The notes under the pieces: generated by a model | What the model was told of the DNA's origin: nothing | What the model saw: only the letters and a program-made list of their open reading frames with translations | The model's database searches: none | Assembly (NCBI GenBank): GCA_016935175.1 | Contig: JAFGRK010000032.1 | Span: 1,719-65,718, forward strand | From: Candidatus Woesearchaeota archaeon | GTDB taxonomy: Archaea; Nanobdellota; Nanobdellia; Woesearchaeales; SM23-78 | Direction: 5' to 3' | Length of the DNA: 64,000 bases | In this document: piece after piece, positions 38,138 through 63,315 of the stretch | Position numbering within the stretch: position 1 is the first letter of the stretch | Layout: the number at the start of each line of letters is the position of its first letter | Program-made: the position numbers and the translations under genes

Positions 38138-38138
38138 G

Positions 38139-39791: not shown

Positions 39792-39833
39792 TTATTGGTA
39801 AGCTTAAAATAAGTCCGTTAACTAATGAACTGC

Positions 39834-40748: not shown

Positions 40749-40916
40749 CTTACCCTGAATATACTTCAGCTAATATAAATACTTTTCGCTTTCATAATTA
40801 CATAATTACTAGTAATAATTATAATTGACAAAAGTATATATATTTTACCGCTAATACTATCCGTAAAGGTTTCAGGCTTTGAAGAAAGCCTTCAAGAAAC
40901 CGGGAGGACATCCAAA

Positions 40917-41369
40917 ATGCTAAAGCCAACTGATTTCAGGATTATTTCAGCTTTAAGGCAGAATGCCAGGGAAAGCCTGACTAACATCAGCAAGAAGGTC
41001 AAGATACCCATTAGCACGCTCTATGAGCGCCTAAAAAGCCATGAGAAGAGCATCATAACCAAGCATACCACCCTGCTGGACTTTGCCAAGCTAGGCTACA
41101 TGTGCAGGGCTAATATCATGCTCAGGACAGCCAGGGAGCACAGGGACAAGCTAGGAAGCTTCCTAAAGGCCCATCCAGCCATAAACAACCTGTACAAGGT
41201 CAACAATGGCTATGATTACCTGGCAGAAGGGGTGTTTTCCCATATAAAGGACATGGAAGACTTCCTGGAAGAGCTGGAAGTGAGCTTTCCCTTGGAAGAG
41301 AAGAAGACCTTTTACCTGGTAGAGGAGCTGAAAAGGGAGGATTTCATGAGCCAGGAGTTAATTATATAA
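40917..41369 (+). CDS. Lrp/AsnC-family transcriptional regulator.
   Basis: N-terminal HTH (DFRIISALRQNARESLTNISKKVKIPISTLYERLK) plus a C-terminal RAM domain. Confidence 0.85.
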   Translation: MLKPTDFRIISALRQNARESLTNISKKVKIPISTLYERLKSHEKSIITKHTTLLDFAKLGYMCRANIMLRTAREHRDKLGSFLKAHPAINNLYKVNNGYDYLAEGVFSHIKDMEDFLEELEVSFPLEEKKTFYLVEELKREDFMSQELII

Positions 41370-41613
41370 TTATAAATCGTTATATAAGGTATAAGAAAAA
41401 ATTATATATATTATCCAAACAATACATAACGTAAGAATTCCGAAGATGACACTCAAAATTTCAGATTTGGCGGAGAGAACGCGGAAAATGTTAGCGAGGG
41501 TATAAAAGAGACCTGAGCAAAGCAAAAAAGATAGGCGAGAAAAACCAAAAAGAAAATCTCGCCAAGACACCGGCAACGGGAGAGTATTACACAAATAAGA
41601 ATTAGCGAGAGCT

Positions 41614-42588: not shown

Positions 42589-42601
42589 ACGAGATGAAAA
42601 A

Positions 42602-43279
42602 ATGAAAACTATAATAATTTCAACCTTTGCAGAGGATCGTATCATTACAGACTCCGGGATGAAAAAGCGAGACGGTGGACCTGCTCTTTTCATAAAGAAT
42701 TTTTTTGATAAAGCAGGTTTAGAATATGAATTGATTTCAGGGGAAAAAGCTATCGTAGAAATTGACATGCGAAATAAAAAGGAAATCGGAAAGATAAAAC
42801 AAGTGGCCTCAATTCAATATGACCCTGACAAGGTAAAAGATTCAGGATTAGTGCTCGTTTCCACCTTGCTTAAAGAGTTCCCTTTAAAGGCGTACGGGGC
42901 TTTTCCTTGCGTGGATATACAAGGTTATGTCCGTAGCGCTACTGGATTCGGAAAAAAGAAATATTTCGATTCACCAGAGTTAGAGAAATTTGCCATTATC
43001 AAAGGAACTGAGAACGAATTAAGGTATGTGCCCATCAGCAGGATGAAAGGGAAGAATATCGTAATTAAAACAAAGGGAGCGCAAGGGTTTGACGTCATTT
43101 CGGGTGGAAAAGAAAAATATTTCACAGCAAAAAAAGTAAAATCTCCCAATACCATTGGTGCAGGAGATACATTCTTTGCTGCGTTTTGTACTCACTACTA
43201 CAAAACAAGAGATATCGATAGAAGTGCATTATATGCCAAAGAAAAAGTATGTGAATTTTTAATGCAAAAGAGTGATTAA
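42602..43279 (+). CDS. PfkB-family (ribokinase-like) small carbohydrate/nucleoside kinase.
   Basis: PfkB signature NTIGAGDTFFAAF. At 225 aa it is shorter than canonical ribokinases. Confidence 0.65.
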   Translation: MKTIIISTFAEDRIITDSGMKKRDGGPALFIKNFFDKAGLEYELISGEKAIVEIDMRNKKEIGKIKQVASIQYDPDKVKDSGLVLVSTLLKEFPLKAYGAFPCVDIQGYVRSATGFGKKKYFDSPELEKFAIIKGTENELRYVPISRMKGKNIVIKTKGAQGFDVISGGKEKYFTAKKVKSPNTIGAGDTFFAAFCTHYYKTRDIDRSALYAKEKVCEFLMQKSD

Positions 43280-43928
43280 AATGGAACTTGTAAATGAATA
43301 TACGGATATTTTCGGGAAGCTTTTGAATCAGGTTTCGCTAGTTTCAGAAGAGGAAGCAAAGAAAAAGGTAAGCAACAATAAGAAAAACCTAGAAAAACTT
43401 ATGGGGCTTGACCCTGCTGAAAATTTCAAGATATACTTTGAAATCAAAAATAAAGCCATAGGTGCAATTAAATATCAGGCAAAGCCGATTAAAATAAGAG
43501 AGAAAAGGGACGATGGACTACACCTAGTCAACGTCAATCCCTACTTAGAAATCAGCGACATATCCGTTTTGGAGGAATACAGAGGTGAAAGGCTTTCAAA
43601 GCAGATTTATAACAACATACTTGACTTGTTCAGTGCTAATGAATCTTATAAAATCACCCCCAACTTACTTATCGGAGGAATCGGCCAATTGAAGGATTTT
43701 TATAATAATTTATATAAACTTGGAGAATACTCTAAAGACAGCGAGTTCATTCCAAAAGAGGTATTTAAGGATCAATGGGGAATGATTGAAGGCGTGCGAC
43801 CTGAAACAAAAGGCACAGAGGTATACGCAACGAGACTAGGGCTTAAGGTCGTAGGTTCGAGTAAAACTCACGGTGGGCCAATTTACCTATCCGCAGATTT
43901 AGAATCTACCTTAATGAGGAGAGTATAA
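43272..43928 (+). CDS. Hypothetical protein (possible GNAT-like acetyltransferase fold).
   Basis: ISDISVLEEYRGERLSKQIYNNILD resembles the acetyl-CoA-binding motif A. An 8-nt overlap with the upstream gene. Confidence 0.4.
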   Translation: MIKMELVNEYTDIFGKLLNQVSLVSEEEAKKKVSNNKKNLEKLMGLDPAENFKIYFEIKNKAIGAIKYQAKPIKIREKRDDGLHLVNVNPYLEISDISVLEEYRGERLSKQIYNNILDLFSANESYKITPNLLIGGIGQLKDFYNNLYKLGEYSKDSEFIPKEVFKDQWGMIEGVRPETKGTEVYATRLGLKVVGSSKTHGGPIYLSADLESTLMRRV

Positions 43929-44995
43929 TGGAACCAATAGAATTGCTAAAAAGGCTTGTGGACATAAAATCGGATTGCACTGCCTCAAACAGGGAAGTCA
44001 TTGATGTAATCTCAGGGCTCTTTGCTCAATACCGTAGAGAAATAATTCCTCAGGCAAAAAGCAACACCGGAATGTATAATCTGATTATAAAAATAAAAGC
44101 GAAATGCAAAAATAAGAAAAAGTCATTTGTCTTCGTGATGCACACCGATACTGTAAAGGGAAAATGGTTCAGAAAATCAGTGGAAAGTGAAGGAAAAATA
44201 ATAGGACTGGGAAGCTGTGACATGAAAGCAGGAATCGCAGCAGTATGTACTGCAGTCCTGGAGCAAGATTATGAGCGTGACATATATCTAGTGTTCAATT
44301 CAGATGAAGAAACATCCGGATTAGGTGCAAATTTAACCAGTGCAAGGCTAAGTGTAAAAGACGCTATTGTAATTGTTCCAGAGCCCACGTCAGGAAAGAT
44401 CTGCATAGGCCAAAACAGCTGCGTAGGGTACGAAATAGCAACGAAGGGAAGGTCCTTCCATTCCAGTCTCAATAAAGATGCTGCTTTCAATATGAAAAAT
44501 AATGCAATCAGTAAAATGAGCAAGATAATATCATTCCTAAATGTGAACCAGAAGCAAAATAAGAGTATAGATAGCCAAAACATCGGATTTATTGAAGGCG
44601 GAATAACTGCAAACGTCATACCAGATTACTGTAAAATGAAATTCGAGCAAAGGTTCAAGCCTATATCAAACACAAAATTTGAAATCGCAAATTCAATAAA
44701 AGAGCTACAGCGCCTTGGGGCTGTTGATATTAAGCTAAATTTTAATGGTGAAAGCTTTATCAATAACAACAAGAAGTTGATTGATAAATTCCAGAAAATA
44801 GTTACAAAATACTACCCTGCTACAACAGGCTTATTCAAAGCATGGAGCGATGCCGTGATTTTTAGGAAGTCAGGATCGTGCTTTATTTTTGGACCTGGAA
44901 ATTATGAGCAAGCACACCAAAAGGGCGAATACGTTAAAAAAAGCGAGGTTATCATGTTTAAGAAAATATATCAAGAGTTATTAACTAAAATGTGA
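43928..44995 (+). CDS. M20-family metallopeptidase/deacylase (ArgE/DapE/CPG2-like).
   Basis: Metal ligands HTDTV, DMKAGIAA and SDEETSG. Start overlaps the preceding stop. Confidence 0.8.
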   Translation: MEPIELLKRLVDIKSDCTASNREVIDVISGLFAQYRREIIPQAKSNTGMYNLIIKIKAKCKNKKKSFVFVMHTDTVKGKWFRKSVESEGKIIGLGSCDMKAGIAAVCTAVLEQDYERDIYLVFNSDEETSGLGANLTSARLSVKDAIVIVPEPTSGKICIGQNSCVGYEIATKGRSFHSSLNKDAAFNMKNNAISKMSKIISFLNVNQKQNKSIDSQNIGFIEGGITANVIPDYCKMKFEQRFKPISNTKFEIANSIKELQRLGAVDIKLNFNGESFINNNKKLIDKFQKIVTKYYPATTGLFKAWSDAVIFRKSGSCFIFGPGNYEQAHQKGEYVKKSEVIMFKKIYQELLTKM

Positions 44996-44996
44996 G

Positions 44997-45548
44997 GTGA
45001 GGATTATGAAAAGAAAGTTACAAATCGGAGTTATGGGTTCAACATCAGACCTTAATTATTCAGGTAAAGTTGATGCTTTAGCCGGAAAAATTGGGGAGCT
45101 TATTGCTAAATCAGGCAATATAATAGTATACGGAGCTGAAAAAGACTTTGATAGCTTATCAACTTCCGCTGCCAGGGGGGCAAAAAAGTTCAACGGCTTA
45201 ACAGTAGGTGTTACTTACGGAAAAGGTAAAGATATTTACGATAAGAACAACACTGACGTTATCATCTCTTCTGGGCTTGAGCGAGGTGGTGGCAGGGAGT
45301 TTGTATTAGTGAACAGCTGCGATGCCATCATTGCCATCAGTGGCGGATCAGGAACTCTTACCGAAATAGCAATTGCTTATCAGCTTAATGTTCCAATTAT
45401 CTGTTTAAAAGGAGTTGGCGGATGGAGTGACAAACTCGCAGGAAGCTATATTGATGACAGAAAAAGAATGAAGTGTATTATTGCCAAAAATCCAAAAGAA
45501 GCTGTGGCACTAGCTATTGCTTCTGCCAAAGCTAAAACAAAGAGTTGA
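44997..45548 (+). CDS. LOG-family / TIGR00725 Rossmann-fold protein.
   Basis: GGSGTLTEIAIA resembles the LOG PGGxGTxEE motif. 183 aa. Confidence 0.75.
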   Translation: MRIMKRKLQIGVMGSTSDLNYSGKVDALAGKIGELIAKSGNIIVYGAEKDFDSLSTSAARGAKKFNGLTVGVTYGKGKDIYDKNNTDVIISSGLERGGGREFVLVNSCDAIIAISGGSGTLTEIAIAYQLNVPIICLKGVGGWSDKLAGSYIDDRKRMKCIIAKNPKEAVALAIASAKAKTKS

Positions 45549-45619
45549 AAATCTTTCGGTTTTTCCGAATAAATTACTAAAAAAATAGCGTGAGCTATAT
45601 TAAACGGTCGATATAATAG

Positions 45620-47191
45620 GTGATTAAAATGAATGTAAACAATCAAAAAAACAAGACAACCAAGGAAAAGCATATCGGCATCACAGGTAATGATCTTTCC
45701 TTAGACGACTTCATTCTTGTCGCAAGGCATAAGTACAAGGTTTTCTTAACAAAAGAGGCTAAAAAAAGAATTCTGAAATGCAGAAAAGTCGTTGATAATC
45801 TTGTGGAGGATGAAAAAGTTGTCTATGGTTTAACAACCGGCTTTGGCTCATTAGCCAATATATCGATATCAGCAGATAAAGCCGAAGAGCTCCAGGAAAA
45901 TCTTTTAAGAAGCCATGCTTGCGGTGTTGGAAGACCTTTTAGCGAGGAAATAGTCCGTGGTATCATGCTCTTGAGAGTGAATACTTTTGCCAAAGGGTTC
46001 TCAGGAATAAGATTATCCGCTGTAGAAACTATCATTGAAATGCTTAACAAAGGAATATATCCCTTTGTACCTGAACAAGGCTCTGTTGGTTCAAGCGGAG
46101 ACTTATGCCCGCTATCACACCTTTTCCTTGTAATGATAGGAGAAGGAGAGGTATTTTTAGAAAGAAAAAGAGTCTGTGGGGCAGAAGCCATGAAAAAATT
46201 AGGAATAAAACCTATAAAATTGACTTCAAAAGAAGGCCTAGCTCTTAACAATGGAACGCCAGTAATGACTGCTATCGCAGCAATAGCTGTGTATGACAGC
46301 TTTAATCTTATCCAACACTCAATAATTTCCTCAGCAATCACAATGGAAGCCCTAAAAGCAAATAGCAGCGCTTTAAAGGAAGAAATACATTTAGCAAGAC
46401 CTCATCAAGGCCAAATTAGAACAGCGCAAATATTGAGGAAAATATTGAGAAACAGCCAACTAATAGACTCTAACAAGAAAAAGGTACAGGATGCCTATAG
46501 CATAAGGGCAACGCCAGTAGTTATTGGAGCCAGCCTTGACACATTAAATTATGTGAAGCAAGTAGTGGATACAGAGATGAACTCCGCAACTGACAATCCA
46601 TTGATTTTTGGAGAAAATGCCTATTCAGGAGCAAACTTCCATGGCCAACCCATTGCTCTAGTAATGGATTTCCTAGGCATAGCTATGAGCGAGATAGCTG
46701 ATTTGTCAGAAAGAAGAATATCAAGATTGCTAGATTCATCCCTTAATGAAGGCCTGCCTCCATTTTTGATAAACAAACCAGGATTAAACAGCGGGCTGAT
46801 GATACCTCAATACACAGCAGCATCATTAGTCTCTGAGAACAAGGTGCTGGCTCATCCTGCATCTGTAGACTCAATACCTACTTGCGCAAATCAAGAGGAC
46901 CATGTAAGCATGGGAACCATAGCTGCCAGGAAGGTACTCAAGATAATATTCAATGTTCAAAACGTTATCGCAATTGAGATGCTTACAGCAGCCCAGGCCT
47001 TAGAGATGCGGATTGAATACGAGAAGCTTCTGCCAGGTCCTGTGGTTACAGAGGTTTTAAAAACAATAAGAACATTCGTAGATTACTTAGAGCAAGATCG
47101 AGTGCTTTACAAAGACATTAATAAGCTGAGCAAGGCAATATTAGAAAGAAAATTAATAAAGGAATTAAGTTATAATAGTGAAATAGCTTAA
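45620..47191 (+). CDS. Aromatic amino acid ammonia-lyase family (histidine ammonia-lyase-like) with a Ser-Ser-Gly in place of the usual Ala-Ser-Gly MIO triad.
   Basis: GSVGSSGDLCPLSHL, LNNGTPVM, YSIRATPVV, NPLIF, GANFHGQP. 523 aa. Confidence 0.85.
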   Translation: MIKMNVNNQKNKTTKEKHIGITGNDLSLDDFILVARHKYKVFLTKEAKKRILKCRKVVDNLVEDEKVVYGLTTGFGSLANISISADKAEELQENLLRSHACGVGRPFSEEIVRGIMLLRVNTFAKGFSGIRLSAVETIIEMLNKGIYPFVPEQGSVGSSGDLCPLSHLFLVMIGEGEVFLERKRVCGAEAMKKLGIKPIKLTSKEGLALNNGTPVMTAIAAIAVYDSFNLIQHSIISSAITMEALKANSSALKEEIHLARPHQGQIRTAQILRKILRNSQLIDSNKKKVQDAYSIRATPVVIGASLDTLNYVKQVVDTEMNSATDNPLIFGENAYSGANFHGQPIALVMDFLGIAMSEIADLSERRISRLLDSSLNEGLPPFLINKPGLNSGLMIPQYTAASLVSENKVLAHPASVDSIPTCANQEDHVSMGTIAARKVLKIIFNVQNVIAIEMLTAAQALEMRIEYEKLLPGPVVTEVLKTIRTFVDYLEQDRVLYKDINKLSKAILERKLIKELSYNSEIA

Positions 47192-47230
47192 GGTTAGAGA
47201 AAAACTAAATGAAAGAAAAAGAGAATCCCA

Positions 47231-48148
47231 ATGACAGGACGAAAAAAGAAATTTGAGGATGTCATCATCGACACTGACCCTGGCCATGATGATGCAATGG
47301 CCTTGATGCTAGCGCTCAAATCCCAGATTTTCAAGGTGCATGCAATAACTACAGTTGCTGGTAACTCAGGAATTGAGAATACCACTCGCAACGTCCGGTT
47401 CATCTTAAAGCTCCTGGAAAGAGAAGACATCCCTGTCTATTCCGGGGCAAAAAAGCCTTTGAAGCGAGAGCTTGTGACTGCAGTTGTGCATGGGAAGAGC
47501 GGGCTTGAAGGAATAGACCCAAAAAACCCTGCAAAGCTTACTAATAATGCTGTCAGCAAGATAATCAGCATTGTGAAGGAGAATCCTGGCAAAATAACCC
47601 TTATCACCTTGGGCCCGCTCACTAACATAGCCAAGGCCATAAAGCAGAACCCTAGAGTGATGAGAAAGCTAAAAGCAATAGTCATGATGGGAGGAGCCAT
47701 TAGAGTGGCTGGAAACATGAGCAGAGTAGCAGAGTTCAACATCTTTGTTGACCCAGAAGCAGCAGACATAGTAATGGGGTTTCCTGTGAAAAAAGCAATT
47801 ATACCATTGGATGCCTGCAATCATGTAGTGATGCAACCTTCAGATTTTGCCAAGATAACCAACCAGTCATTAGCAATTCCAATAAAGAAGATGATAAAAC
47901 CCTACATAGCAAACACTCTCAAAGTAGAAGGGATTAACGGCGCATTGATGTACGACCCATTAACTGTTTATTATCTAATCAATCCAAAGGCTTCCAAAAC
48001 TAAAGAGATGAATGTGGTGGTGAAGACAAAAGGAGAGCTGGCAGGCATGACTGCAGCCAGTAAGAAAGAGCCAGCTAATGTTACTGTTGTTGAAAGAACC
48101 TCAGCCAAGCAATTCAAAGAAGATTTTATTAATATATTGTCATTATGA
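47231..48148 (+). CDS. Inosine-uridine-preferring nucleoside hydrolase family.
   Basis: IIDTDPGHDDAMAL (the DxDxxxDD calcium/ribose-binding motif). Confidence 0.85.
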   Translation: MTGRKKKFEDVIIDTDPGHDDAMALMLALKSQIFKVHAITTVAGNSGIENTTRNVRFILKLLEREDIPVYSGAKKPLKRELVTAVVHGKSGLEGIDPKNPAKLTNNAVSKIISIVKENPGKITLITLGPLTNIAKAIKQNPRVMRKLKAIVMMGGAIRVAGNMSRVAEFNIFVDPEAADIVMGFPVKKAIIPLDACNHVVMQPSDFAKITNQSLAIPIKKMIKPYIANTLKVEGINGALMYDPLTVYYLINPKASKTKEMNVVVKTKGELAGMTAASKKEPANVTVVERTSAKQFKEDFINILSL

Positions 48149-50515: not shown

Positions 50516-52276
50516 TTAATGGCCTTGGATAGGGTTTTGTTGCATTGCAAGCTTTTTCAATGATTTCTCATAGTCGCCTTTCTTATAGATCCGCTGCCAT
50601 TTTCTCACAATATCTGCTGCATAGGTCCTGATGACAAGGTTTTTCATCCTTTTCTTGGTCTCGTCCCAAGCATCCACTAGCGACTTATAGAAAACATTCT
50701 TTTCAGGGATATATTTTTCCTTGGCTTTCACTATCTTTTGCCATTGCTCTTTTTTCTTTTCATTAGCATTGTGGACAAAGCTTTTCGCATAATAGATGCT
50801 GAAGTTGATTGGGAATCCTATTGAGAAGTCATAAGCCCAGTTCATCCAGTTGCCATAGTTAAGGTTTCTCTTGAGGAAGCTTCCTAGGTATCTTTGCTTC
50901 ATCAAGGCTAGCGGCAAATTCTGAAGCTCAAAAGCATCCACTCCTGGCTCTGGCTTGTAGCAAAGGAATAATCCATCGTACTTGTCCCAGCCTATGACTG
51001 ATTGCGGCGGAATCCTATCTTCTGCTTCTAGCTTTGTCCTTAATTCTGAGCCTGGCAAGGGCACTGCATTGAATATCTGCACAGTATCAATCCTTGCCTG
51101 CTTGAAGAACTTGGCATAAGCATTTGCTTTTTGCTTTAAGCTAAGGCCTGACTTGTATTCTGAGTCATTGAACGTCGGATAGCCAAAGATGAACATGCCG
51201 TGTAAGTGAAAGCTTCTTGACAGCTTCCTTGACCTTTGAACAAGCTTCTCAACTGTAACTCCTTTTCTCATGGCTTTTAATTCCTCGTTTATAGGGCTTT
51301 CATAGCCAATAGCCATGCCTGAAACTCCCCCGTATTTCATAGCCTCAATCAATTCATCATTCTCTGCTATCTCAGTCCTGACCTGAACCATCAAGTCAAT
51401 TTTCTTCTTGGAATTAGTTCTGTAGTCTCCTAGCATCTTGCACAGCTCTATGGCCTCAGGGATGTTCTGGGCAAAGTTATCATCAACAATAAAGAATGAC
51501 TTGTAGCCTTGCTCAATAAAGCCTTTTATCTGGCTAAAGGCTTTTTCAACAGAGGCTGCCTTGAATGCTCCGTATTGCTTGTTCACCACGCAGAACTCGC
51601 ACTTGAAATTACAGCCCCTTCCCCTGCTTATGGGTATTGAGCTCCAGTCTTTCCCCATAAATCTTACCAATCCTAAGTCAGGGTCTGCTAGCTCATCAAG
51701 GTTCTTTATGGGCTCTCGCTTGCCTGTAAACACATACTGGTCTTTTGCATCAAGAAAGCTTATTCCTACTATGTGCTCAAGCTTTTTCTTGTAATCCTTA
51801 ACAACTTTGCCGTCAGATATTATTGCTTGGAAAAGCTCTTTTGCAATCTCTTCTCCCTCACCATGCACTACTACATCAATGCCAGAGGCTAGTGCTTCTC
51901 TTGGCAACGCATCTACATGGCTTCCGCCGGCAATAGTTGGTATTCCTAGTGCCTGGTATTGCTTGGCAGTAGAGTACATCCTTGGAACTGCATTGCTCAT
52001 GCCACCATAGAACATGGCTAGCTTCACAGGATGATTCTTCTGCAGAACCTTGTGGTCTGGCAAGCCTTTTGAATCCACTGGGCCGCCATAGTTGTTCTCA
52101 TCAATAGCATAAGCCTCAACACCCAAATCACGCTTCAATTGGGCAAGCACAGACAGTATGCCTACTGGGGGCATCCTGACCTTGGCATAGATGTTCTGCT
52201 TAGAATGGGGTGGAAACTGCGGAATTATCCCGATTACCACCGGATTATCTCCTGAAGAAAGATCGCCACCTCTCAC
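50516..52276 (-). CDS. B12-binding-domain radical SAM protein (class B radical SAM).
   Basis: N-terminal B12-binding-like Rossmann region, then SRGRGCNFKCEFC (CxxxCxxC), then a ~200-aa C-terminal extension. Confidence 0.8.
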   Translation of the reverse strand: MRGGDLSSGDNPVVIGIIPQFPPHSKQNIYAKVRMPPVGILSVLAQLKRDLGVEAYAIDENNYGGPVDSKGLPDHKVLQKNHPVKLAMFYGGMSNAVPRMYSTAKQYQALGIPTIAGGSHVDALPREALASGIDVVVHGEGEEIAKELFQAIISDGKVVKDYKKKLEHIVGISFLDAKDQYVFTGKREPIKNLDELADPDLGLVRFMGKDWSSIPISRGRGCNFKCEFCVVNKQYGAFKAASVEKAFSQIKGFIEQGYKSFFIVDDNFAQNIPEAIELCKMLGDYRTNSKKKIDLMVQVRTEIAENDELIEAMKYGGVSGMAIGYESPINEELKAMRKGVTVEKLVQRSRKLSRSFHLHGMFIFGYPTFNDSEYKSGLSLKQKANAYAKFFKQARIDTVQIFNAVPLPGSELRTKLEAEDRIPPQSVIGWDKYDGLFLCYKPEPGVDAFELQNLPLALMKQRYLGSFLKRNLNYGNWMNWAYDFSIGFPINFSIYYAKSFVHNANEKKKEQWQKIVKAKEKYIPEKNVFYKSLVDAWDETKKRMKNLVIRTYAADIVRKWQRIYKKGDYEKSLKKLAMQQNPIQGH

Positions 52277-52382: not shown

Positions 52383-53045
52383 ATGGATGTCTTAAAACAC
52401 AAGCACAAGATTCCAGAAAAAGTCTATGCAGAGCTAGAGAAGCGAGGCTTTACCAAGCTTAGGCCAGCGCAGGCAAAAAGTATCGATGCAGGGCTTTTTG
52501 AGGACAAAAACTTGCTCGTTTGCACTCCAACAGCAAGTGGCAAGACCCTTGTTGCTGAGCTAGCTTTCCTCAATGCCATACTTCATGATAAGGGAAAAGC
52601 AGTCTATGTTGTCCCTTTGCGAGCCTTGGCCAGCGAGAAGTACAAGACTTTCAAGAAAGACTATCCGAGCATAAAGATTGCTATCAGTTCTGGTGACATT
52701 GACAGCGCAGACTCATTCCTAGAGCAGTATGACTTGATAATCACAACAAGCGAAAAGTTTGATAGCTTAATCAGGCACAAGGCTCATTGGCTCAAGCAAG
52801 TCAAGACAGTCATAATTGATGAAGTGCACTTGCTCAATGACCCTGGCAGAGGCCCTACTCTTGAAGTATTGATTACCATCCTTCGCTCAATCCTTAAGAA
52901 CCTTCAGCTCATTGCCCTTAGCGCGACCATCGGCAACCCAAAAGAGCTTGCAGAATGGCTCAAAGCAGAGCTAATTATCGACGAATGGAGGCCTGTAAGG
53001 CTCGATAAGGGCGTGTATCTCGACGGGAAAATTGACTTTGAATAG
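52383..53045 (+). pseudogene. Hel308/Ski2-like DNA helicase: only the N-terminal RecA1 domain is present (truncated gene or gene fragment).
   Basis: Walker A CTPTASGKT, DEVH box, LSAT motif. The ORF stops right after RecA1 (…ELIIDEWRPVRLDKGVYLDGKIDFE*). No RecA2, WH or ratchet domains follow in any frame. Confidence 0.5.
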
Positions 53046-53179
53046 CCTTGGCCAGCTCAAATTCTAAATAAATAGAGTTTTCTCGCCTATTATTTTTCGT
53101 TTTGACAAAAAAAAATCCCATAAGGTTTTATATTAATATTCTACTTCATAGTGGTTATAATTAGAAAAAGGTGAACTAT

Positions 53180-54418
53180 ATGCAAGAAGTACCAAAACCA
53201 GCAGAGCCAGAGAACTTTGCATTATACAGGCCAAAATTAATCCAGTACATCGCAAGAGCCCAGCCCGACGCATTTGACGAGATCCAAAGGATGCTTATGT
53301 CAATAGAGAACCAGCACCCAGTAGGGCTCGAAGGGGAGCCAGGGACAGGAAAAAACCAGCTCATAGACTTCTTAGCCTCAGCAAGAGGAAAAAGCGTTGG
53401 GAGGGTCAGGTGCACAGAGGAGCTGACACTTGAGAGCCTCCTTGGAAAGGAAAGGATACGCTCAGAAAGGGCAGAGCATGGCGTAATTATGAACTCAATA
53501 TATGAGGAAGGCATAATACCACTGACCTATGCAGCAGGGGCTGACCTAGTGCTTGACGAGTTCAACCAGCTGCTCCCGACAGTGCAGAAAGGAATGAACT
53601 CAATGTTCGAGGACAAAAAGACCATTTGTGTAGATGGCAAGCACAGGGAAAAGAAAGGCGACGGCGCTACCTACGTGACTTTCAACCCCAAGACAGGCGT
53701 CACAGGGCAAGACCTGGAGAAAGCAGTAAAGGACAGGCTTAAGATAATACCATTGCCTGAAATACCGCTTGAGCTACAGGCAAGGATTACCCTTATAAAA
53801 ACAGGCATCATCAAGCCAGAGGAAATAATTGATGAAGCAATGGAGCAAAGGGCCATCATAACCTACGAGGAGAACGGAAGGCAAAAATACCAGTTCCTAG
53901 AAAAGCAAGGGAAAGTATATGTTGAGTACAGGACAGGCAGGGAAGCCAAGAAAGGCGAGCTAAGGGAATACCTATTCTACACAGGGAAAGAATCAAGCCT
54001 AAGGCTTACTGGTGCAAAGAATGAAGCTTACAAGGTAGCCCAGAGCCTAGTGGCACTGGCAGATGACGTCAATAAGTTCAAGAATCACGGCACAAGCGTG
54101 TTCGATGATGACTTCAACCAAGCCCTTGGCCTAGACCAGGTAAGCAAGATAGGCATTGAGTCAGGAGGGCTAAGGATAATAGCCAAGGTCATGGAAGACT
54201 ATGCGTTGATGACAGAAAGAGGGCAGATGCTAGATGACATCCTGCCAACCCTTGCAAGGACTTACCTTGACAACATATGCACCTTGGAGATGAGGCATAT
54301 GCCCATAGGCAAGAAAGACAACAAGGACATATCTATCTACGAGGTTCTGGAGACCATGGCAGCCAAAAGAGGGTTCTTCCCAATAAAAAGGCACAAGTAC
54401 GCATCAATAGCAGACTAG
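53180..54418 (+). CDS. MoxR-like AAA+ ATPase (CbbQ/NorQ/GvpN-like) with a deviant Walker A (GEPGTGKN).
   Basis: Walker A VGLEGEPGTGKNQLIDF, Walker B ADLVLDEFNQL. The track start at 53171 is a GTG, and an ATG at 53180 is preceded by SD-like 'aaaaaggtga'. Confidence 0.7.
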   Translation: MQEVPKPAEPENFALYRPKLIQYIARAQPDAFDEIQRMLMSIENQHPVGLEGEPGTGKNQLIDFLASARGKSVGRVRCTEELTLESLLGKERIRSERAEHGVIMNSIYEEGIIPLTYAAGADLVLDEFNQLLPTVQKGMNSMFEDKKTICVDGKHREKKGDGATYVTFNPKTGVTGQDLEKAVKDRLKIIPLPEIPLELQARITLIKTGIIKPEEIIDEAMEQRAIITYEENGRQKYQFLEKQGKVYVEYRTGREAKKGELREYLFYTGKESSLRLTGAKNEAYKVAQSLVALADDVNKFKNHGTSVFDDDFNQALGLDQVSKIGIESGGLRIIAKVMEDYALMTERGQMLDDILPTLARTYLDNICTLEMRHMPIGKKDNKDISIYEVLETMAAKRGFFPIKRHKYASIAD

Positions 54419-54432
54419 ATGGCGGTGTAAAG

Positions 54433-56127
54433 ATGAAATACAAAATAGGCTATAAAGTTCGAGTCAGGAAAGACATCGAAAAACCCACGTATGGTTGGGG
54501 AGATGTAAAGCACGGAGATATAGGTGTCATCAAAAGAGTTGATTCAGATGGAGACCTCCTGATTGACTTCCCAAATCAGAGCGAGTGGTCTGGCAAAGCA
54601 AGTGAGATGGAGCTAGCCATAGCTAGTCAACTAAAGAAAGGCTCGCTCGTGCTTATCACAGAGCCAGTGCTAAGGAGCTACATCAAGACAAAAGAGGACC
54701 TGAAAGAAGGCACTAAAGTGCTTGTCAAAGGCGGGAAAAAGACTTGCGACGGAGAAAAGTATAAAGGAGGCCTTGGTGAGATTGTATCGCTCAACAGCTG
54801 CGGCTCTGAGGATGAGTTCCCATATAAGGTAAGAGTGGGAGAAAAGTCAGGGGTATGCATAGGAAAAGATGCTCTCACGCCTGTTAAGCCTGTCTATTGG
54901 TTTGATGGAAAAGCCAGCGGGACCATTAAAAAGAAAGATAAGGATGAATGCTATGTCAAGATAAAAAAATGCCCTTCAAACCAAGAGGTAGAGGGAAAAG
55001 TGATAAAGGTCCCTGTTGGATCACTTGATGATATGGTGAAAAAAATGCACCCGCTAAGCTTCTCAGAGGCAAAGCCCATCCTGGTGTGGGAAAAGTTTGT
55101 CATGCAAAGCAGGACAGGGGTAAAGCTTGTGGACAGCGGCGGAAAAGGGTGCTATACTGATGGAGAGAAAATATACCTGCCAGAGTCAGTTGCAATGCTA
55201 GAGCACCTTGAGGATGTTGAAAGCACCATATTCAACAACCCCAACCTCACATTGTATGCCGGGCTAATGCTTCACGAGCTAGCGCACATACGCTACGGCT
55301 CATTCAAGCTGAAGATGGAAAAAGTGCTTGAGCCTATAAAGCACAAGGAAGCTTTCAAGAGCATAATGAACATACTGGAAGACAACAGGGTAGAAAGCCA
55401 CTTGCAGAGGGAGTTCAGGGGCCAGGACTACGAGAGAATCCTTGACGAGACAAGGACCTTGCTCATAGAGAAGTCCAAGCTTCCTAAAAACCCGCTTGCA
55501 AAGCTATTGCTAAGCTATCACTTAAGGCTTACAAGCCACAAGTACAGGGGCATCAAGTTTTTGGACAAGGAGAAGCGCGAAGCCCTTGACAAAGAGATAG
55601 CTGGCTTTTTGGCAACAGAGGATCCTATCACAAAGAAGCTGTACAAAGAGATTGAAGATGAAATATTTGAAATAAGCAAGGACATAAAAAAGCCCAGGAA
55701 AACTGTGCTAAGCTCATTGAAGATAGCAAAAAAAGTTTATGAAAAGCTAGAGACCTTGCTAGAAGCAGACTTAACATTGGAGCCGCCTGAGAGGGGAGAT
55801 GGAGGCACCTTCACAGGAGGCACTGACCCAACCTCAGACCACTTTGGGGACGGAGGCATAGAGGTCACTCCTGAAAACATCGACTCACCTGACCTAGAGG
55901 ATATGGTAGGTGACCCAGCGCCTGGCCAGGATGGAGATGATTCTGGTGAAGGGGCAGAAGGAAGCGATGGCGCAGATGGAGGAACAGGAGGAGAAGGAGA
56001 TGATGGTGAGCAAGGCTGGCTTATTGAGGCAGTGAAAGGCGGGCTTATAAGGAGAGGCTACAACCCTACAAGGGCAGGCGAGCTTGCCGATGAAGTAGAT
56101 AAGTTCATAGGAGGCAAGGCAAAATGA
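54433..56127 (+). CDS. Protein with two N-terminal MIB/HERC2-like beta-barrel repeats, an HExxH putative metallopeptidase-like domain (DUF2201_N-like), and a C-terminal Gly/Asp-rich linker.
   Basis: IGYKVRVRKDIEKPTYGWGDVKHGDIGVIKRVDSDGDLLIDFP (MIB/HERC2-like), repeated once. MLHELAHIRYGS with a downstream Glu. GDGGTFTGGTDPTSDHFGDGG linker. The likely start is the ATG at 54433, 15 nt after the AAA+ gene's stop. Confidence 0.6.
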   Translation: MKYKIGYKVRVRKDIEKPTYGWGDVKHGDIGVIKRVDSDGDLLIDFPNQSEWSGKASEMELAIASQLKKGSLVLITEPVLRSYIKTKEDLKEGTKVLVKGGKKTCDGEKYKGGLGEIVSLNSCGSEDEFPYKVRVGEKSGVCIGKDALTPVKPVYWFDGKASGTIKKKDKDECYVKIKKCPSNQEVEGKVIKVPVGSLDDMVKKMHPLSFSEAKPILVWEKFVMQSRTGVKLVDSGGKGCYTDGEKIYLPESVAMLEHLEDVESTIFNNPNLTLYAGLMLHELAHIRYGSFKLKMEKVLEPIKHKEAFKSIMNILEDNRVESHLQREFRGQDYERILDETRTLLIEKSKLPKNPLAKLLLSYHLRLTSHKYRGIKFLDKEKREALDKEIAGFLATEDPITKKLYKEIEDEIFEISKDIKKPRKTVLSSLKIAKKVYEKLETLLEADLTLEPPERGDGGTFTGGTDPTSDHFGDGGIEVTPENIDSPDLEDMVGDPAPGQDGDDSGEGAEGSDGADGGTGGEGDDGEQGWLIEAVKGGLIRRGYNPTRAGELADEVDKFIGGKAK

Positions 56128-57434
56128 AAACCGCAATCGTTGGGATAATAAATAAGCTTAAAGGACACTTGACATCAAAATACACCCGCAAGGAAGCTGA
56201 GGACGTTGAAGATGTCCTTGAAGGACTGTATGGCACTGGAGGAACAGGAGTAGAAGGCTTAGATGCTCCACCAGAAGGGCCGCAAGGTGATTTCCCATTT
56301 AGAGAAGGCGAAGATGGAGAGGAAGGAACCCGAGGGGATGGTCCTATAGGAGGCATAGAAAGAGTGCTTCTTCCTCCAAGGGGAGGAAAGAGCAGAAAAG
56401 GACAAAAAGGCAGCAAGCCATTGCCAGAGGATTTTGGCAAGCCACCCAAGTACATAAAGGACGGGAAAGACCTTATCAGGGCTATCAGCGAAGCTGAGAA
56501 GAGGCTCAGGGAAAAGGAAAAGCGTGAAGAGAGCGACTTCAGGCCAGTTCCTGAGTGGAACAGGGAAAAGAGGGGTTACGAGCATAACAAGGTAGGATAC
56601 GTGGTAGAAGCATACTCTGAAAGGAAGGATGAAGGGGGGCTTAAGACTTACAAGGAAAAATTCAGCAGGCTCAGCGACCTGGTAAAAGAGGAGCTTAAGA
56701 AGCTAAAGCCAACTGCAAGGCGCAGGGTGACTAGGCAGACAGAAGGCTCGCTTGACATGGAAGTTGTAATCAGGGAGCTAAAAAAAGGAATGAGCGGCAA
56801 GGACATCTCTGATAAGCTTTACGAGAGGACCAAAAAAGAAAGAAGGGATTATGCTGTAGGCATACTCATAGACAGGAGCGGTTCCACATCGGATGGAGTT
56901 GGAAAAGGCTTTGACAGGCTTGATGTGGAAAAGTATTCAGCCATGCTCTTGGCAGACGCACTGGATGAGCTAAATGATAATTTTGCAGTGTACTCTTTCA
57001 GCACCGATGGCAGCGGAACCAAGACATCCCTTGAAAAGCTCAAGGAGTTTGACGATGAATGGGATGAACCAGCCAAACAGTATGTTGCCAGCATAACGCC
57101 AGGGCACCAGAACCACGACGGAACAGCAATAAGGGGCATGACTGAGATGCTTGCCAAGAGGACAGAAAAAAAGAAAGTGCTTGTGCACATATCTGACGGG
57201 ACTCCCTGGGTTGACGGCGGCTATTACCGACGTGAATATGCAAACGAAGACACCTTGAAGGCTATTGAGGAAGCAGAGAAGGCAGGCATCAGGGTTATTT
57301 ACCTGTCAATTGACCCAAGCAACCTTGAATTTTTCAGGCAGGCTGCAGAAAAATGCACCTTTGCAGAGAAGTTCAATGATGTTTTTGAGCTTCCTAAAAA
57401 GATAACTGACTTGTACCTGGCCATGAGAAAGTAA
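56124..57434 (+). CDS. von Willebrand factor A (vWA) domain protein with an N-terminal Gly-rich region; partner of the MoxR-like ATPase.
   Basis: MIDAS motif ILIDRSGSTSD (DxSxS) plus downstream T and D residues (HISDGTP). An ATGA start/stop overlap with the upstream gene indicates translational coupling. Confidence 0.7.
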   Translation: MKTAIVGIINKLKGHLTSKYTRKEAEDVEDVLEGLYGTGGTGVEGLDAPPEGPQGDFPFREGEDGEEGTRGDGPIGGIERVLLPPRGGKSRKGQKGSKPLPEDFGKPPKYIKDGKDLIRAISEAEKRLREKEKREESDFRPVPEWNREKRGYEHNKVGYVVEAYSERKDEGGLKTYKEKFSRLSDLVKEELKKLKPTARRRVTRQTEGSLDMEVVIRELKKGMSGKDISDKLYERTKKERRDYAVGILIDRSGSTSDGVGKGFDRLDVEKYSAMLLADALDELNDNFAVYSFSTDGSGTKTSLEKLKEFDDEWDEPAKQYVASITPGHQNHDGTAIRGMTEMLAKRTEKKKVLVHISDGTPWVDGGYYRREYANEDTLKAIEEAEKAGIRVIYLSIDPSNLEFFRQAAEKCTFAEKFNDVFELPKKITDLYLAMRK

Positions 57435-57535
57435 TTGAGAAGCAGCCATGCCAAGGAAAAGCTAGGTAATAATAGGCGGCAAAATGCCTGGAATTCCATA
57501 AAGTTTATAAACTATTTTTACTTTCCCTTTTCTTT

Positions 57536-57913
57536 ATGTATTCACCAACAGATAACAACAAAAAGGCTGATTTTTCTATGCAAGGGCAGCTAAGGCAATA
57601 TTGCCCTAATTGCTTCTACTTCAAGCCCGGAGCAATGGCTGAAGTCCATGAGAAAAGCGGTTACACGCGAGTCCTAGGCAATGCCAGATATGATTGCGGC
57701 AAGGGAAACCCTTCGGTCAAAAGGCTTCAAGCTTGCTGCTATTTTGAGCCCTGGAACAAGAGAGCTTTTAAGAAATATGAGGAGCTTTCTGAGCTGATAG
57801 ATGCCCAGGAGCATGAAAGCGCCTATAAGAATAAGCTCTTGGAACAAAAAAATGAGATTGCCGATTACCTAAAGGTTATCAACATAGACCTGTTCTTGAA
57901 GCTGAGTTCATAA
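57536..57913 (+). CDS. Small Cys-containing (zinc-ribbon-like) hypothetical protein.
   Basis: CPNCFYF...CGKG...CCYFEPW. A TATA-like 'gtttataaac' lies ~28 nt upstream. Confidence 0.4.
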   Translation: MYSPTDNNKKADFSMQGQLRQYCPNCFYFKPGAMAEVHEKSGYTRVLGNARYDCGKGNPSVKRLQACCYFEPWNKRAFKKYEELSELIDAQEHESAYKNKLLEQKNEIADYLKVINIDLFLKLSS

Positions 57914-59573: not shown

Positions 59574-60992
59574 GTGGAAAAAACAATTGCAAGGGCAAAA
59601 TCAACAGTGTTGATAGGGTTGCAGTATGGGGATGAAGGCAAAGCCCGAGTCATGGACACCATGCTTAAGGATTACCAGATAGTTGCAAGGTTCAATGGAG
59701 GCGCAAATGCAGGCCACACATTGCAAGTAGGCAGCATCAACATCGCCCTGCACCAGGTTCCGTCAGGGATTTTCTACAAGGACATGATGCTCTACATAGG
59801 CAGCGGGTGCGTAGTCAACCCAAAAAAGCTTCTTGATGAGATAAAAGAGATAAAATCCAACAAGGTGAAAGTTGACAATCGGCTTTTCATCTCAGGCTAT
59901 GTCACACTTATCCAGCCCCATCACCTGTTGTTTGACGAGATCTATGGCAAGGAGATCGGCAGCACCAAGAATGGCATTGGGCCTGCCTATGCTGACAGGG
60001 CAATGAGGGCAAAGCGCAGCGAAATAAAGAATATCAGGTTTGGTGATTATGTTTATAACCATAAGAAGTTCAAGAGCATAGTAAGGGATAATCTTGCCCA
60101 CATGGAGGAGAAGCATGGCTTGTCAGAAGTTGACATTGACAAGCAAGTTGATGAATTTGATAAGTGCGTGATGCAGATAAAGAAATACCTTTGCAATGAC
60201 CCTCTCATGATAGAGAGCCTGGTTGAGAAAGGCAAGAGCATCTTCTTTGAGGGAGCGCAGTCAGTGATGCTAGATGTGGTCACAGGAGCAACTCCGTATG
60301 TGACTTCTAGCAGGACCATTGCTGCAGCTGCCTACACTGGAGGAGACCTGTCCAACAAGTACCATTACAAGACTCTTGGAGTGGCAAAAGCAATAATGTC
60401 CAGGGTTGGAAATGGCCCTTTTATCTCTGAATTTGGAGGGGGGAAGTCAGAGCTCTACTGTGCAGAAGGAGGAGGGCTTGACCATGTCAAGGAAAAAGAA
60501 TATGGTGATGCAAAGCCAGAAGAACTGCTTGCCTCAAAGGATTTGTTTGACATAGGCAAGGGCCTGAGGATGCTTACTGGCGAGTACGGAGCAACTACCA
60601 AGAGGCCAAGGAGGATTGGCATACTTGACCTGGTGATGCTAAGGCAGAACTGCAAGCTTAATGGTGTGGACGAGCTCTACATCAACAAGTTTGACTGCTT
60701 GGCTGAATTTAACAAGACAAGGCTGCCAGGAATACCGATTGTGGTTGGCTACAAGCTTAATGGCAGGAAAATAAATTACATGCCTGTTTCTGTTGACGAG
60801 GCAAGAAAAGTAAAGCCCATAATCAAGTACTTCCCGCACATAAAAGAGGATATTTCTATGTTCAAGGAGTATGGCAACCTGCCTGCAGAAGTCAAAGGAT
60901 TGGTGGAATTCATTGAGAAATTTGTCGAGACCAAGGTTTGCGGCATAGGGGTTGGGCCTGAAAGGGAGCAATTCATCCTTTTGCCTGCTTAA
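59574..60992 (+). CDS. purA: Adenylosuccinate synthetase.
   Basis: QYGDEGKARVMD, GGANAGHTL, GIGPAY. GTG start in the track. Confidence 0.9.
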   Translation: MEKTIARAKSTVLIGLQYGDEGKARVMDTMLKDYQIVARFNGGANAGHTLQVGSINIALHQVPSGIFYKDMMLYIGSGCVVNPKKLLDEIKEIKSNKVKVDNRLFISGYVTLIQPHHLLFDEIYGKEIGSTKNGIGPAYADRAMRAKRSEIKNIRFGDYVYNHKKFKSIVRDNLAHMEEKHGLSEVDIDKQVDEFDKCVMQIKKYLCNDPLMIESLVEKGKSIFFEGAQSVMLDVVTGATPYVTSSRTIAAAAYTGGDLSNKYHYKTLGVAKAIMSRVGNGPFISEFGGGKSELYCAEGGGLDHVKEKEYGDAKPEELLASKDLFDIGKGLRMLTGEYGATTKRPRRIGILDLVMLRQNCKLNGVDELYINKFDCLAEFNKTRLPGIPIVVGYKLNGRKINYMPVSVDEARKVKPIIKYFPHIKEDISMFKEYGNLPAEVKGLVEFIEKFVETKVCGIGVGPEREQFILLPA

Positions 60993-62022
60993 GATTCTTT
61001 TGGGTTTTTTCAGCTTCCCTAGCTATCTTAAGAAGCTCGTCTACCACTCCTTCTGGAAAGGTTGTGCTCTTGTATTTCTCAAATATTATCAGGGTATCAT
61101 ATGATACTATTAGTTCTGCCATCTCATCCCTGACTTTCATTAGGATTTTCCTATATGCCTCGTTGCTTTCTGAGTGGATGTGCAGCTCAAAGTCCCATTT
61201 GCCCATGCACCTGGTCATATAGGTTATATTTGGGATGCTCCTGATTATCTCGATGAATTTTTTTTGCTGGGTTTCAGGAGGCCTGTTCATGTCTATCAGC
61301 AGCTGGTACCAATTATAGCCTAGTGTCTTGAAGCTTATCCTTGCCTTGAATTCCACGATTATCTTCCTTGCCACGAGATTCCTTATCCTGTACCTCACTA
61401 CGTCTGGTGAAGTCTTGAGATTGGATGCGATCTCCACTAGGCTTGCCCTGGCGTTCTGCTCAAGATGCTGTATTATCCTTATGTCGAGTGAATCAAGCTT
61501 GGTGTCAGCAGGCTCAGTTGCGAATTCGTTCCTGATTGGCTTGGCTGCGAATTGCTCTTTCTTTCCTATAAGGTCTATATAGAAAGGCTGAATGCTAAAG
61601 ATGATGTTGGTTTCATAGCTCTCGAGGTTGTTGCCTATGAAAGCCATTATTTCCTCTATCCTGTTGTTGAAGTCTAAGATATTCTTTGCTGACATCGCAA
61701 ATGCCAGGTCCCATTTTCCTTCACATACCACCACCCAGCGGGTGAATGGGTGGCTTACTAGGTGGCTGATTATCTCTTTCTCCCTTGCCTCGCTTATATT
61801 TCTCAGCCTGAGATACACTCCAAAGGTAGAATAGCCTAGTTTTGTTAGGTCAACAGTCAGGGTGAAGTTTTTCAGTATGCCCTTTTCAAGCAGGTTCCTT
61901 ATCCTGTAGTCAACTACTTGCTTTGAAAGCCCTACTTTTGAGGCTATGCCTGAAAGAGAATCCCTGCCATCTTCGTCTAGTGCTGTGAGGATTCTTTTGT
62001 CTTTCAAGTCTATTTTGTGCAT
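60973..62022 (-). CDS. Tandem-duplicated Lrp/AsnC-family transcriptional regulator (two HTH + RAM modules).
   Basis: Two copies of an HTH_AsnC-like segment (DKRILTALDEDGRDSLSGIASKVGLSKQVVDYRIRNL and DIRIIQHLEQNARASLVEIASNLKTSPDVVRYRIRNL), each followed by a RAM-like domain. Confidence 0.8.
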   Translation of the reverse strand: MHKIDLKDKRILTALDEDGRDSLSGIASKVGLSKQVVDYRIRNLLEKGILKNFTLTVDLTKLGYSTFGVYLRLRNISEAREKEIISHLVSHPFTRWVVVCEGKWDLAFAMSAKNILDFNNRIEEIMAFIGNNLESYETNIIFSIQPFYIDLIGKKEQFAAKPIRNEFATEPADTKLDSLDIRIIQHLEQNARASLVEIASNLKTSPDVVRYRIRNLVARKIIVEFKARISFKTLGYNWYQLLIDMNRPPETQQKKFIEIIRSIPNITYMTRCMGKWDFELHIHSESNEAYRKILMKVRDEMAELIVSYDTLIIFEKYKSTTFPEGVVDELLKIAREAEKTQKNLKQAKG

Positions 62023-62929: not shown

Positions 62930-63315
62930 ATGATTACAAAAAAAAGAAGGTGATGAAGATGGAACATCTTGAGGCAATAATCCAGTCAGAAGATGCAGAG
63001 CACTATGATGAGAAGTATATAGTCGTGCAAGTCAAGGAAGAGGATAAGGTAAGGCATGTGCTTGTCTCGTTCCCGATGGATTACCACAGCGAGATTGCCA
63101 GGGCCTACCAGAGGAAATTAGATGAGAAGGCAAAGGCAGTGGCAGTCAGGGGAGGAGGGATAATCACAGTCGACAAGAAGGAAAAGAAAGTCCGCACCTA
63201 TGGCATGAGTGGAAGCTATGGCGGGCCAGACATCTCCCTAGTTGGTAAGATACTTGCCAAGGCATTCCCTGACTTTTCAATTGATGCCAAAGTTACTGCA
63301 TATGTCAGAGGATAA
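62926..63315 (+). CDS. Hypothetical protein.
   Basis: Complete ORF overlapping the previous stop. No motif recognised. Alternative Met starts at about 62953 and 62959. Confidence 0.35.
   Translation: MNDYKKKKVMKMEHLEAIIQSEDAEHYDEKYIVVQVKEEDKVRHVLVSFPMDYHSEIARAYQRKLDEKAKAVAVRGGGIITVDKKEKKVRTYGMSGSYGGPDISLVGKILAKAFPDFSIDAKVTAYVRG

Follow-up and report, generated by a model that had tools for sequence, protein, structure and literature searches.

The stretch of DNA considered here, called the window, covers 64 kb of a metagenome-assembled genome (MAG) of Candidatus Woesearchaeota (DPANN archaea), and carries on its forward strand three tightly coupled genes: gene 1 (53180-54418; 412 aa, with an alternative GTG start at 53171) for a MoxR-class AAA+ ATPase, gene 2 in the middle (54433-56127; 564 aa) for a protein with an SH3_15 domain and an HExxH motif, and gene 3 (56124-57434; 436 aa) for a vWA protein. 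An earlier note on this DNA had described such a trio, and the open reading frames (ORFs) together with their Pfam matches support all three genes; the ATGA overlap that it placed between genes 2 and 3 is read at 56124-56127, the stop codon of gene 2 being the TGA of this tetranucleotide, and the gap between the stop of gene 1 and the start of gene 2 is 14 nt rather than the 15 nt given there. In NCBI, an identical copy of the gene 2 protein is annotated as hypothetical (locus tag JXB28_06080; contig of 66 kb). Upstream of the operon, the intergenic region at 53046-53179 (+) is AT-rich and contains a TATA-like ttttatatta and a GGTGA located 5 nt before the ATG at 53180, a putative archaeal promoter and ribosome-binding site. 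Taken as a whole, sequence comparisons and structural models indicate that the operon probably encodes two partners, a MoxR-class AAA+ motor like CobS, NorQ or CbbQ and an adaptor of the CobT/NorD type, the latter split in its disordered linker.

Regarding gene 1, its product scores above the threshold of Pfam AAA_5 (E 1.8e-10), and among PDB sequences it matches Midasin (6.5e-17), CbbQ (2e-6) and NorQ (1e-3). The core motifs of the MoxR-class AAA+ proteins (AAA_5; CobS/NorQ/CbbQ/Midasin group) are in place, with Walker A GEPGTGKN at residues 52-59 (53333-53356), Walker B LDEFN at 53552-53566, sensor-1 TFNP and the Arg motif VKDR; Walker A deviates, ending in GKN instead of GK[ST], so that the MoxR-type ATPase with an unusual Walker A announced earlier is borne out. 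Beyond the AAA_5 core, the protein continues with a helical C-terminal extension of ~200 aa. Five homologs were detected in all, and the Asn of Walker A, the DEFN of Walker B, the T-x-NP of sensor-1 and the KDR are invariant across gene 1 and these five proteins, down to 33% identity; because the Asn never varies in this alignment, GKN is best read as a fixed feature of the clade and not as decay. The ATPases of two sister systems (loci L091 and L093; related loci are given L numbers) have the usual GKT, and by analogy with its relatives the enzyme of the window may be an active ATPase with its GKN. As for the gene context, three of the five homologs sit in plain AAA-vWA pairs preceded by a divergent double-helix-turn-helix (HTH) regulator, and a vWA gene occurs in the same operon as the ATPase in the window, L002, L006, L009, L010, L091 and L093. 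The ATPases of the AAA-vWA pairs (L006 8001-9461, L009 1705-3012 and L010 6040-7485) have a long acidic tail ending in D-[IL]-P-F, which looks like a conserved C-terminal docking motif and is absent from the ATPase of the window. It can be added that the best match of gene 1 among solved structures, the eukaryotic Midasin/Rea1 AAA domain, is far ahead of the bacterial CbbQ and NorQ; together with the Mind-bomb/HERC2-type SH3 domain of gene 2, this makes the nearest annotated relatives of the module eukaryotic.

In gene 2, the central domain (55042-55803 (+), residues 204-457) contains YTDGxxIYLP, HELAH (residues 281-285, 55273-55287) and NILEDNRVE (55369-55395) and, as judged from profile comparisons and modelling, is a CobT_N-type domain with a predicted zincin/M48-like fold. 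A profile of this domain found 98 relatives among 1.84 billion representative proteins, 35 of them scoring below 1e-10, with the shared signature Y-x-G-x(3)-HExxHI-x(2)-GSF ... N-I-x-ED-x-R-[IV]-E; the H, E, H and D are invariant in alignments of 26 and of 39 relatives, and HExxH is kept in 86 of 96 more distant representative relatives. Four relatives pass the Pfam gathering threshold for the CobT N-terminal family PF06213, nearly end to end (best E 6.8e-15), and the same four also match CobT_C. When the family of the gene 2 domain was compared by hhalign with the N-domains of these CobT-positive proteins, the two agreed with 99.7% probability (E 2.9e-25), and their HExxH and ED-R-IE motifs were aligned. 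The DUF2201_N family, put forward earlier as a check, found no match among the window proteins at E up to 0.1; the assignment to CobT_N takes its place.

The fold of this domain was predicted with AlphaFold2 (AF2). A model of the full gene 2 protein built from three sequences had a predicted local distance difference test score (pLDDT) of 51.6 and an unusable HExxH domain; the domain was re-modelled alone from the alignment of 26 sequences, with a pLDDT of 88.7 and a predicted template modelling score (pTM) of 0.87. In the model, one helix precedes a small beta-sheet, after which come eight helices, and the same layout is found in the crystal structure of CobT_N, a domain that its authors liken to the peptidase M48C domain (2026 preprint). 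Foldseek searches against predicted viral structures (BFVD) returned phage vWA proteins on top, one of them named CobT (E 2e-4, probability 1.0), and also a vWA protein of a haloarchaeal tailed virus; against the PDB, no match was found at E <1. With HELAH and, downstream of it, NILEDNRVE, the domain has the motifs expected of M48/gluzincin-like enzymes, an HExxH on the active-site helix and an acidic third ligand; the zincin domain that had been presumed around HELAH is therefore upheld at the level of prediction, and by analogy the site may have peptidase activity.

The N-terminal part of gene 2 starts with an SH3_15 domain, an SH3-like domain of the Mind-bomb/HERC2 type (54439-54615 (+), residues 3-61), matched by Pfam at residues 3-59 (E 9e-8); a profile of three homologs matches the HERC2 chain 9l8y_A at E 3.9e-19. 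Two further beta-rich segments follow (54634-55041 (+), about residues 68-203), which AF2 builds as strands with pLDDT about 60-85 and which contain invariant Cys residues; they resemble the first barrel weakly (hhalign E 0.05-0.09, not significant) and may be degenerate SH3-like barrels. Of the two MIB/HERC2-like beta-barrel repeats that had been claimed, one is thus retained, and the second is not significant; PF06701 (MIB_HERC2) matched no window protein at E up to 0.1. The further remark that such repeats are unusual for archaea has to be qualified, as SH3_15 occurs also in phage proteins and metagenome contigs and is not exclusive to eukaryotes.

After the zincin-like domain, gene 2 ends with a region (55804-56127 (+)) that comprises a disordered linker (residues 458-527) and, at the C-terminus, a tail of two helices (residues 528-564), which carries the motif RGYNPTRAGELA. 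The linker is rich in G, D and E, with 19 G and 14 D among its 70 residues, which agrees with the Gly/Asp-rich linker described before; in the AF2 model, pLDDT is <50 in the linker and rises to 70-77 in the tail helices. The generalised tail motif, [KR]-G-Y-[SND]-x(3)-A-x-E-[IL]-A, was matched among 112 proteins scanned only by stand-alone HExxH proteins of Woesearchaeota.

Gene 3 encodes a protein that begins with a helix (residues 1-36) with the pattern K-x-Y-[ST]-x(3)-A-x-D-[VI], resembling the tail-helix motif of gene 2; a linker of about 100 residues (37-140), rich in Gly, Pro and Glu, leads to a NorD-like region (residues 141-407, 56544-57344 (+)), whose 267 residues match residues 355-617 of the NorD chain 9qhd_G at E 1.3e-25. 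In Pfam the protein matches CobT_C (E 3.5e-7) and VWA_2 (E 2.9e-5), and among phage profiles phrog_5298 (3.6e-13) and phrog_1576 (4.6e-9). [quoted passage not shown] The protein stops about 30 residues past the vWA domain and is without C-terminal effector domains.

The relation between genes 2 and 3 emerges when their relatives are considered. Among the 96 relatives of the HExxH domain, at least 69 carry a vWA domain of the window type, as detected with the profile of the vWA family, always C-terminal to the HExxH domain and with a median gap of about 280 residues; they include a bacterial family of about 1200 aa, and several more relatives carry Pfam vWA domains. Because the HExxH domain is of the CobT_N type and is fused in so many relatives to a vWA domain of the same type, genes 2 and 3 appear to be the two halves of one CobT/NorD-type adaptor. 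In addition, phrog_1576 spans both proteins: of its 729 positions, 67-134 match the HExxH region of gene 2 and 515-691 the vWA domain of gene 3. Each half keeps a low-complexity Gly/acidic segment, which would be the remnant of the linker. Hence, compared with a CobT/NorD adaptor, the locus has the vWA domain with its MIDAS and also the CobT_N domain, but the latter is on a separate protein and the two are not joined in a single polypeptide. Accordingly, what had been termed a ternary module is better described as a binary MoxR-adaptor pair with a split adaptor, and the proposed kinship with chaperone/activase systems of the RavA-ViaA, CbbQO and NorQD type is borne out for NorQD, CbbQO and CobST, through the Midasin/CbbQ/NorQ matches of gene 1 and the NorD match of gene 3.

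The split itself recurs. Stand-alone halves are found in L002, with three small genes between them, in L093, with the order HExxH-vWA-AAA, and in L091, which argues against an assembly artefact; the five closest non-identical relatives of the HExxH domain are all without vWA, and the three of them with a source name are from Woesearchaeota. In five independent contexts from Woesearchaeota, genes for HExxH, vWA and AAA_5 proteins lie side by side, in differing orders; the homologies, the domain order, the conserved motifs, the split and the linkage of the genes in several lineages are all direct observations. As for the way in which the halves could find each other, the C-terminal helix in gene 2 and its N-terminal counterpart in gene 3 may re-join them; their similarity is statistically weak, as 21 to 201 of 1000 shuffles reach the observed score. 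A sizeable family of ~1100-1300-aa proteins (P0014, P0019-P0029 and similar), one member of which has a named source, a Leptospiraceae bacterium, combines a CobT_N-type HExxH domain in central position (about residues 560-780) with a C-terminal vWA domain of the NorD/CobT_C type, and its about 550 N-terminal residues have no Pfam match.

Several points weigh against a working split adaptor with an active zincin-like half. The linker is covalently broken here, whereas in the NorQD model a covalently continuous linker has to be under tension, and in L005 no vWA gene follows the gene 2 homolog. The contig of L005 starts at the AAA+ gene, so that an upstream vWA copy may still exist; a 256-aa downstream gene of that locus was considered as a divergent vWA protein and rejected, as it has 20% identity and no MIDAS. 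In the search of PDB sequences, the HExxH profile retrieved only designed helical bundles, which are noise, and the Asn that replaces Ser/Thr in Walker A could impair the binding of Mg-ATP. No target is encoded near the module, and none of the neighbouring genes is conserved across all the loci. Moreover, we know of no member of the HExxH-domain family with demonstrated peptidase activity. Finally, the annotation of viral CobT proteins as peptidases has been called mistaken (PMC8651126).

A mechanism for the module can be outlined on NorQD and CobST, for which PMC13036017 and bioRxiv 10.64898/2026.07.21.739949 serve as joint templates. In the solved NorQD complexes, the C-terminus of NorD lies on the post-sensor-1 loop and its N-domain on the small helical subdomain of NorQ, and ATP-driven rotation of the vWA domain relative to the N-domain stretches the linker; in CobST and CobSTN, CobT_N sits on the extended small subdomain of CobS and the CobT_C shaft is in the ring (PMC13036017; bioRxiv 10.64898/2026.07.21.739949). 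By analogy, the ATPase of gene 1 would assemble as a hexamer, the vWA domain would be seated on the ring, a finger or shaft of it reaching into the pore, and its MIDAS would grip an acidic residue of the target; the CobT_N-like domain would dock on the helical C-terminal subdomain of the ATPase, the ~200-residue extension of gene 1 being the expected platform. Gene 2 would contribute the intact HExxH...ED-R-E metal site, preceded by the SH3-like domains and followed by half of the acidic linker, and the rest of this linker would come from gene 3 together with the vWA/MIDAS domain. Hydrolysis of ATP would then rotate or pull the vWA part relative to the N-domain and remodel the bound target, which the SH3-like domains probably recruit; the conserved zincin site would either cleave this target or hold a metal.

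A bolder version of the split-adaptor reading, which we regard as clearly unlikely, is that the module is a non-chambered ATP-dependent protease, in which the AAA+ ring twists a substrate held by the vWA domain against a separate, SH3-targeted zincin subunit, the halves being held together only by the short terminal helices. In such a case, the CobT/NorD-type adaptors would descend from active M48-like peptidases, and the ATP-driven rotation would engage or release the protease; in a DPANN organism, the target could be a protein that acts where symbiont and host meet, or one of surface or proteome maintenance.

Two other explanations of the module have to be weighed against the split adaptor acting in protein remodelling. 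Like CobST or NorQD, the module could assist a chelatase or an insertase of metal cofactors; the HExxH would then bind a metal and hand it over without cutting any protein, the target metalloenzyme being encoded elsewhere. This option is rather unlikely in our view; its strength is that the nearest relatives that have been characterised, CobST, NorQD and CoxDE, all act in metal insertion, and the links to CobT_C and to the CobT family point in the same direction, as does a His-rich protein of ~260 aa beside two related modules. The same could be said of a B12-binding radical SAM gene (50516-52276 (-)) that lies between argS and the helicase gene helN, two genes upstream of the module; however, this gene occurs also in L011 and L012, which are both without module, and its proximity to the CobST-like genes is therefore probably coincidental. 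Furthermore, no CobN-sized, ChlH-sized or CobN-like gene and no nitric oxide reductase (NOR) gene is found in the 64-kb window. DPANN archaea are, to our knowledge, generally without cobalamin synthesis.

Alternatively, the genes could be an accessory conflict or defence module, or the remnant of a virus, with a MoxR-vWA sensor and a peptidase effector that act on infection, which is very unlikely. The distribution would suit such a role: the gene 2 type is known, besides the window, in only two other lineages among 5.8 billion proteins, the module is absent at the same site in the closest relatives and lies at a synteny breakpoint, relatives of its proteins are common in tailed viruses, and the module of L091 adjoins an insertion sequence (IS) element, a PycTM gene and nucleotidyltransferases. 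A 17-nt inverted repeat (53078-53094 / 57468-57484, 15 of 17 positions complementary) lies in the intergenic regions and brackets genes 1-3 exactly, and the window contains 3 copies of its 12-mer core versus 0.27 expected; this was the one candidate for a flanking insertion scar, and it is not conserved in L002. Other data speak against such an origin or role: the neighbours are housekeeping genes (argS upstream, purB and purA downstream), no integrase is present, and the synteny between the window and L002 suggests vertical descent. With the gene 2 alignment, a scan of IMG/VR viral contigs gave no relative, the phage records one match confined to the SH3 domain and no close homolog, and the metagenome two matches, again to the SH3 domain only. 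As for the vWA-MoxR conflict systems evoked by the earlier note, they are not recognised here: PADLOC returned only noise, and Pfam, NCBIfam and PADLOC gave no VMAP, iSTAND or FtsH third component and no effector domain, the VMAP and iSTAND profiles themselves not having been searched.

With regard to the related loci, L002 is syntenic with the window, in the order helN, module, a small Cys ORF and purA, with the regulator and the Ocnus/Janus gene rearranged. The small Cys ORF of the window (57536-57913 (+); 125 aa, but 111 aa if the ATG at 57578 is the start) has its own AT-rich upstream region and a single homolog among 5.8 billion proteins, which is 53-58% identical and in L002 likewise comes after the vWA gene; the pattern C-x2-C...C...C is conserved between the two, as is a C-terminal helix. 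A conserved Cys ORF thus does follow the module, as had been noticed; its description as Zn-ribbon-like is not sustained, since neither Pfam nor the other family libraries gave a match and the pattern is not that of a classical zinc ribbon. It may be an accessory gene that is part of the module.

Other genes accompany the module in one or another locus. A protein of ~260 aa with the His-rich motif HQHxHPLYQ and no family adjoins the module in L005 (3018-3788) and in L093 (1764-2546), the two copies being 67% identical; it has no homolog in the window and could be a substrate or a partner. Near the MoxR-vWA genes, or divergent from them, five loci have a double-HTH regulator of the AsnC/HTH_24 type (about 310-350 aa), and one is encoded also downstream of the module in the window; a gene of the Ocnus/Janus (phosphohistidine-phosphatase) family is near the module in the window, L002 and L093. 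In the window these side genes lie at 60973-62022 (-) and 62962-63312 (+), and the loci compared were L002, L006, L009, L010 and L093; their proximity could reflect a functional link or just local synteny. Lastly, L091 (7001-13178) holds a sister split system, made of an SH3_15-HExxH protein of 686 aa and then a 447-aa homolog of gene 3 with a DRSGS MIDAS; a DDE transposase is inserted before its AAA_5 gene, and a gene with a PycTM domain, a transmembrane domain of the Pycsar effector type, and nucleotidyltransferase genes are at its flanks.

The gene immediately upstream, outside the module, is helN (52383-53045 (+), 220 aa), which encodes a Hel308-type RecA1 domain; it corresponds to positions 7-218 of the 739 of the Hel308 profile, stops after RecA1 and is followed by an AT-rich gap of 125 nt, just as the earlier note had it. 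The note saw in this an insertion of the module into or beside hel308, and this does not hold. In a survey with one genome per species, which collected 80 loci (L011-L090) from MAGs of Woesearchaeota and Nanoarchaeota with 57-90% identity to the 220-aa ORF, the same ORF of ~220 aa is present in all 80, with or without the module, and its stop falls within 0-3 codons of that in the window in 72 loci, within 4-12 codons in six, and at 23 and 66 codons in the last two. The closest relatives, L011, L012 and L013 (87-90%), are all without module, and each has something else downstream of helN, namely an ITPase-like gene, a pair of large ORFs or, in L013, purA directly. Because the stop is shared by the 80 loci and the module is missing in L011-L013, the short helicase gene is a conserved stand-alone gene that predates the module; the module did not truncate it and occupies a variable spot downstream. 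Patterns for helicase motifs V and VI found no match in the window and, in the 80 loci, only separate full-length helicases; no C-terminal helicase half adjoins helN in any of these loci, many of which have the 220-aa gene next to argS. This gene may encode one part of a split helicase whose partner is distant, or else a protein that has RecA1 alone and serves a new role, and the 220-aa Hel308 fragment of Woesearchaeota should not be annotated as a pseudogene.

Regarding the rest of the window, no Rfam match and no tRNA gene were found in the scans. The stretch from 35000 to 48000 has a G+C content of 36-40%, compared with 43-50% elsewhere, and encodes the product of the largest ORF of the window, a 986-aa protein with an APH phosphotransferase (kinase-like) domain, and a 550-aa protein with a protein-kinase domain; after these genes comes one for histidine ammonia-lyase (45620-47191).

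Among known systems, CobS/CobT is the closest in build, as it likewise combines a MoxR-class AAA+ protein with an N-domain of M48C/zincin fold, a long acidic disordered linker and a C-terminal vWA domain with MIDAS. The module of the window differs from it by the absence of a CobN partner in the window, the SH3_15-type N-terminal domains, the GKN Walker A and the intact HExxH site, whereas for CobT_N neither zinc nor an HExxH is mentioned in the CobST preprint; moreover, when scored directly against CobS and CobT of Pfam, the window proteins give weak matches or none. As for NorQ/NorD, which serves FeB insertion in nitric oxide reductase, NorD shares the layout of N-domain, unresolved linker and vWA domain with finger, and gene 1 matches also CbbQ of the Rubisco activase CbbQ/CbbO; here, instead, the adaptor is in two genes, the N-domain has no sequence match to that of NorD, no NOR or Rubisco genes are nearby, and the ATPase has 412 aa, including its C-terminal extension, versus about 270 aa for NorQ.

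Viruses offer the other relevant comparison. CobST pairs are widespread in tailed viruses, where cobT is often annotated as a peptidase, and in the archaeal virus HHTV-2 cobT is split, with the vWA domain in its own ORF (PMC8651126). Group 2.2 jumbo phages encode a MoxR protein and a vWA cochaperone with an N-terminal metallopeptidase, a combination proposed to couple chaperoning and proteolysis (Iyer et al. 2021, PMC7824862); the window has this set of domains too, and phrog_1576 and the BFVD matches link its proteins to phage proteins of that kind, which may include the published examples. In contrast to these phages, the window is cellular and not viral, the peptidase-like and vWA domains are on separate proteins and an SH3_15 domain is added. 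On the viral and other non-canonical CobT proteins the literature disagrees, as they are regarded either as chelatase subunits misnamed peptidases (Liu et al. 2021, PMC8651126) or as metallopeptidase-vWA cochaperones (Iyer et al. 2021, PMC7824862). Found mainly in multicellular bacteria, the vWA-MoxR ternary conflict systems are defined by VMAP-C/M, iSTAND or FtsH and by effector arrays (Kaur et al. 2020, PMC7159879); in common with the window they have a MoxR-vWA dyad that is joined by an additional protein, in some cases one with peptidase domains, and their distribution is patchy too, but the "third" protein of the window would be the detached N-half of the adaptor.

In conclusion, the literature already describes fused metallopeptidase-vWA proteins paired with MoxR, as well as a cobT that is split in an archaeal virus, and what the window adds is the cellular DPANN setting, the SH3_15-type N-terminal domains, a conserved split with a terminal helix motif and the GKN Walker A clade. 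The occurrence in a reduced cellular DPANN genome, the lack of CobN in the 64 kb, the conserved HExxH and the added SH3-like domains together favour the remodelling or processing of proteins over tetrapyrrole chelation. Compared with NorQD, finally, the split in the linker amounts to a natural test of the linker-stretching model: should the split system prove functional, the linker would not need to be covalently continuous.

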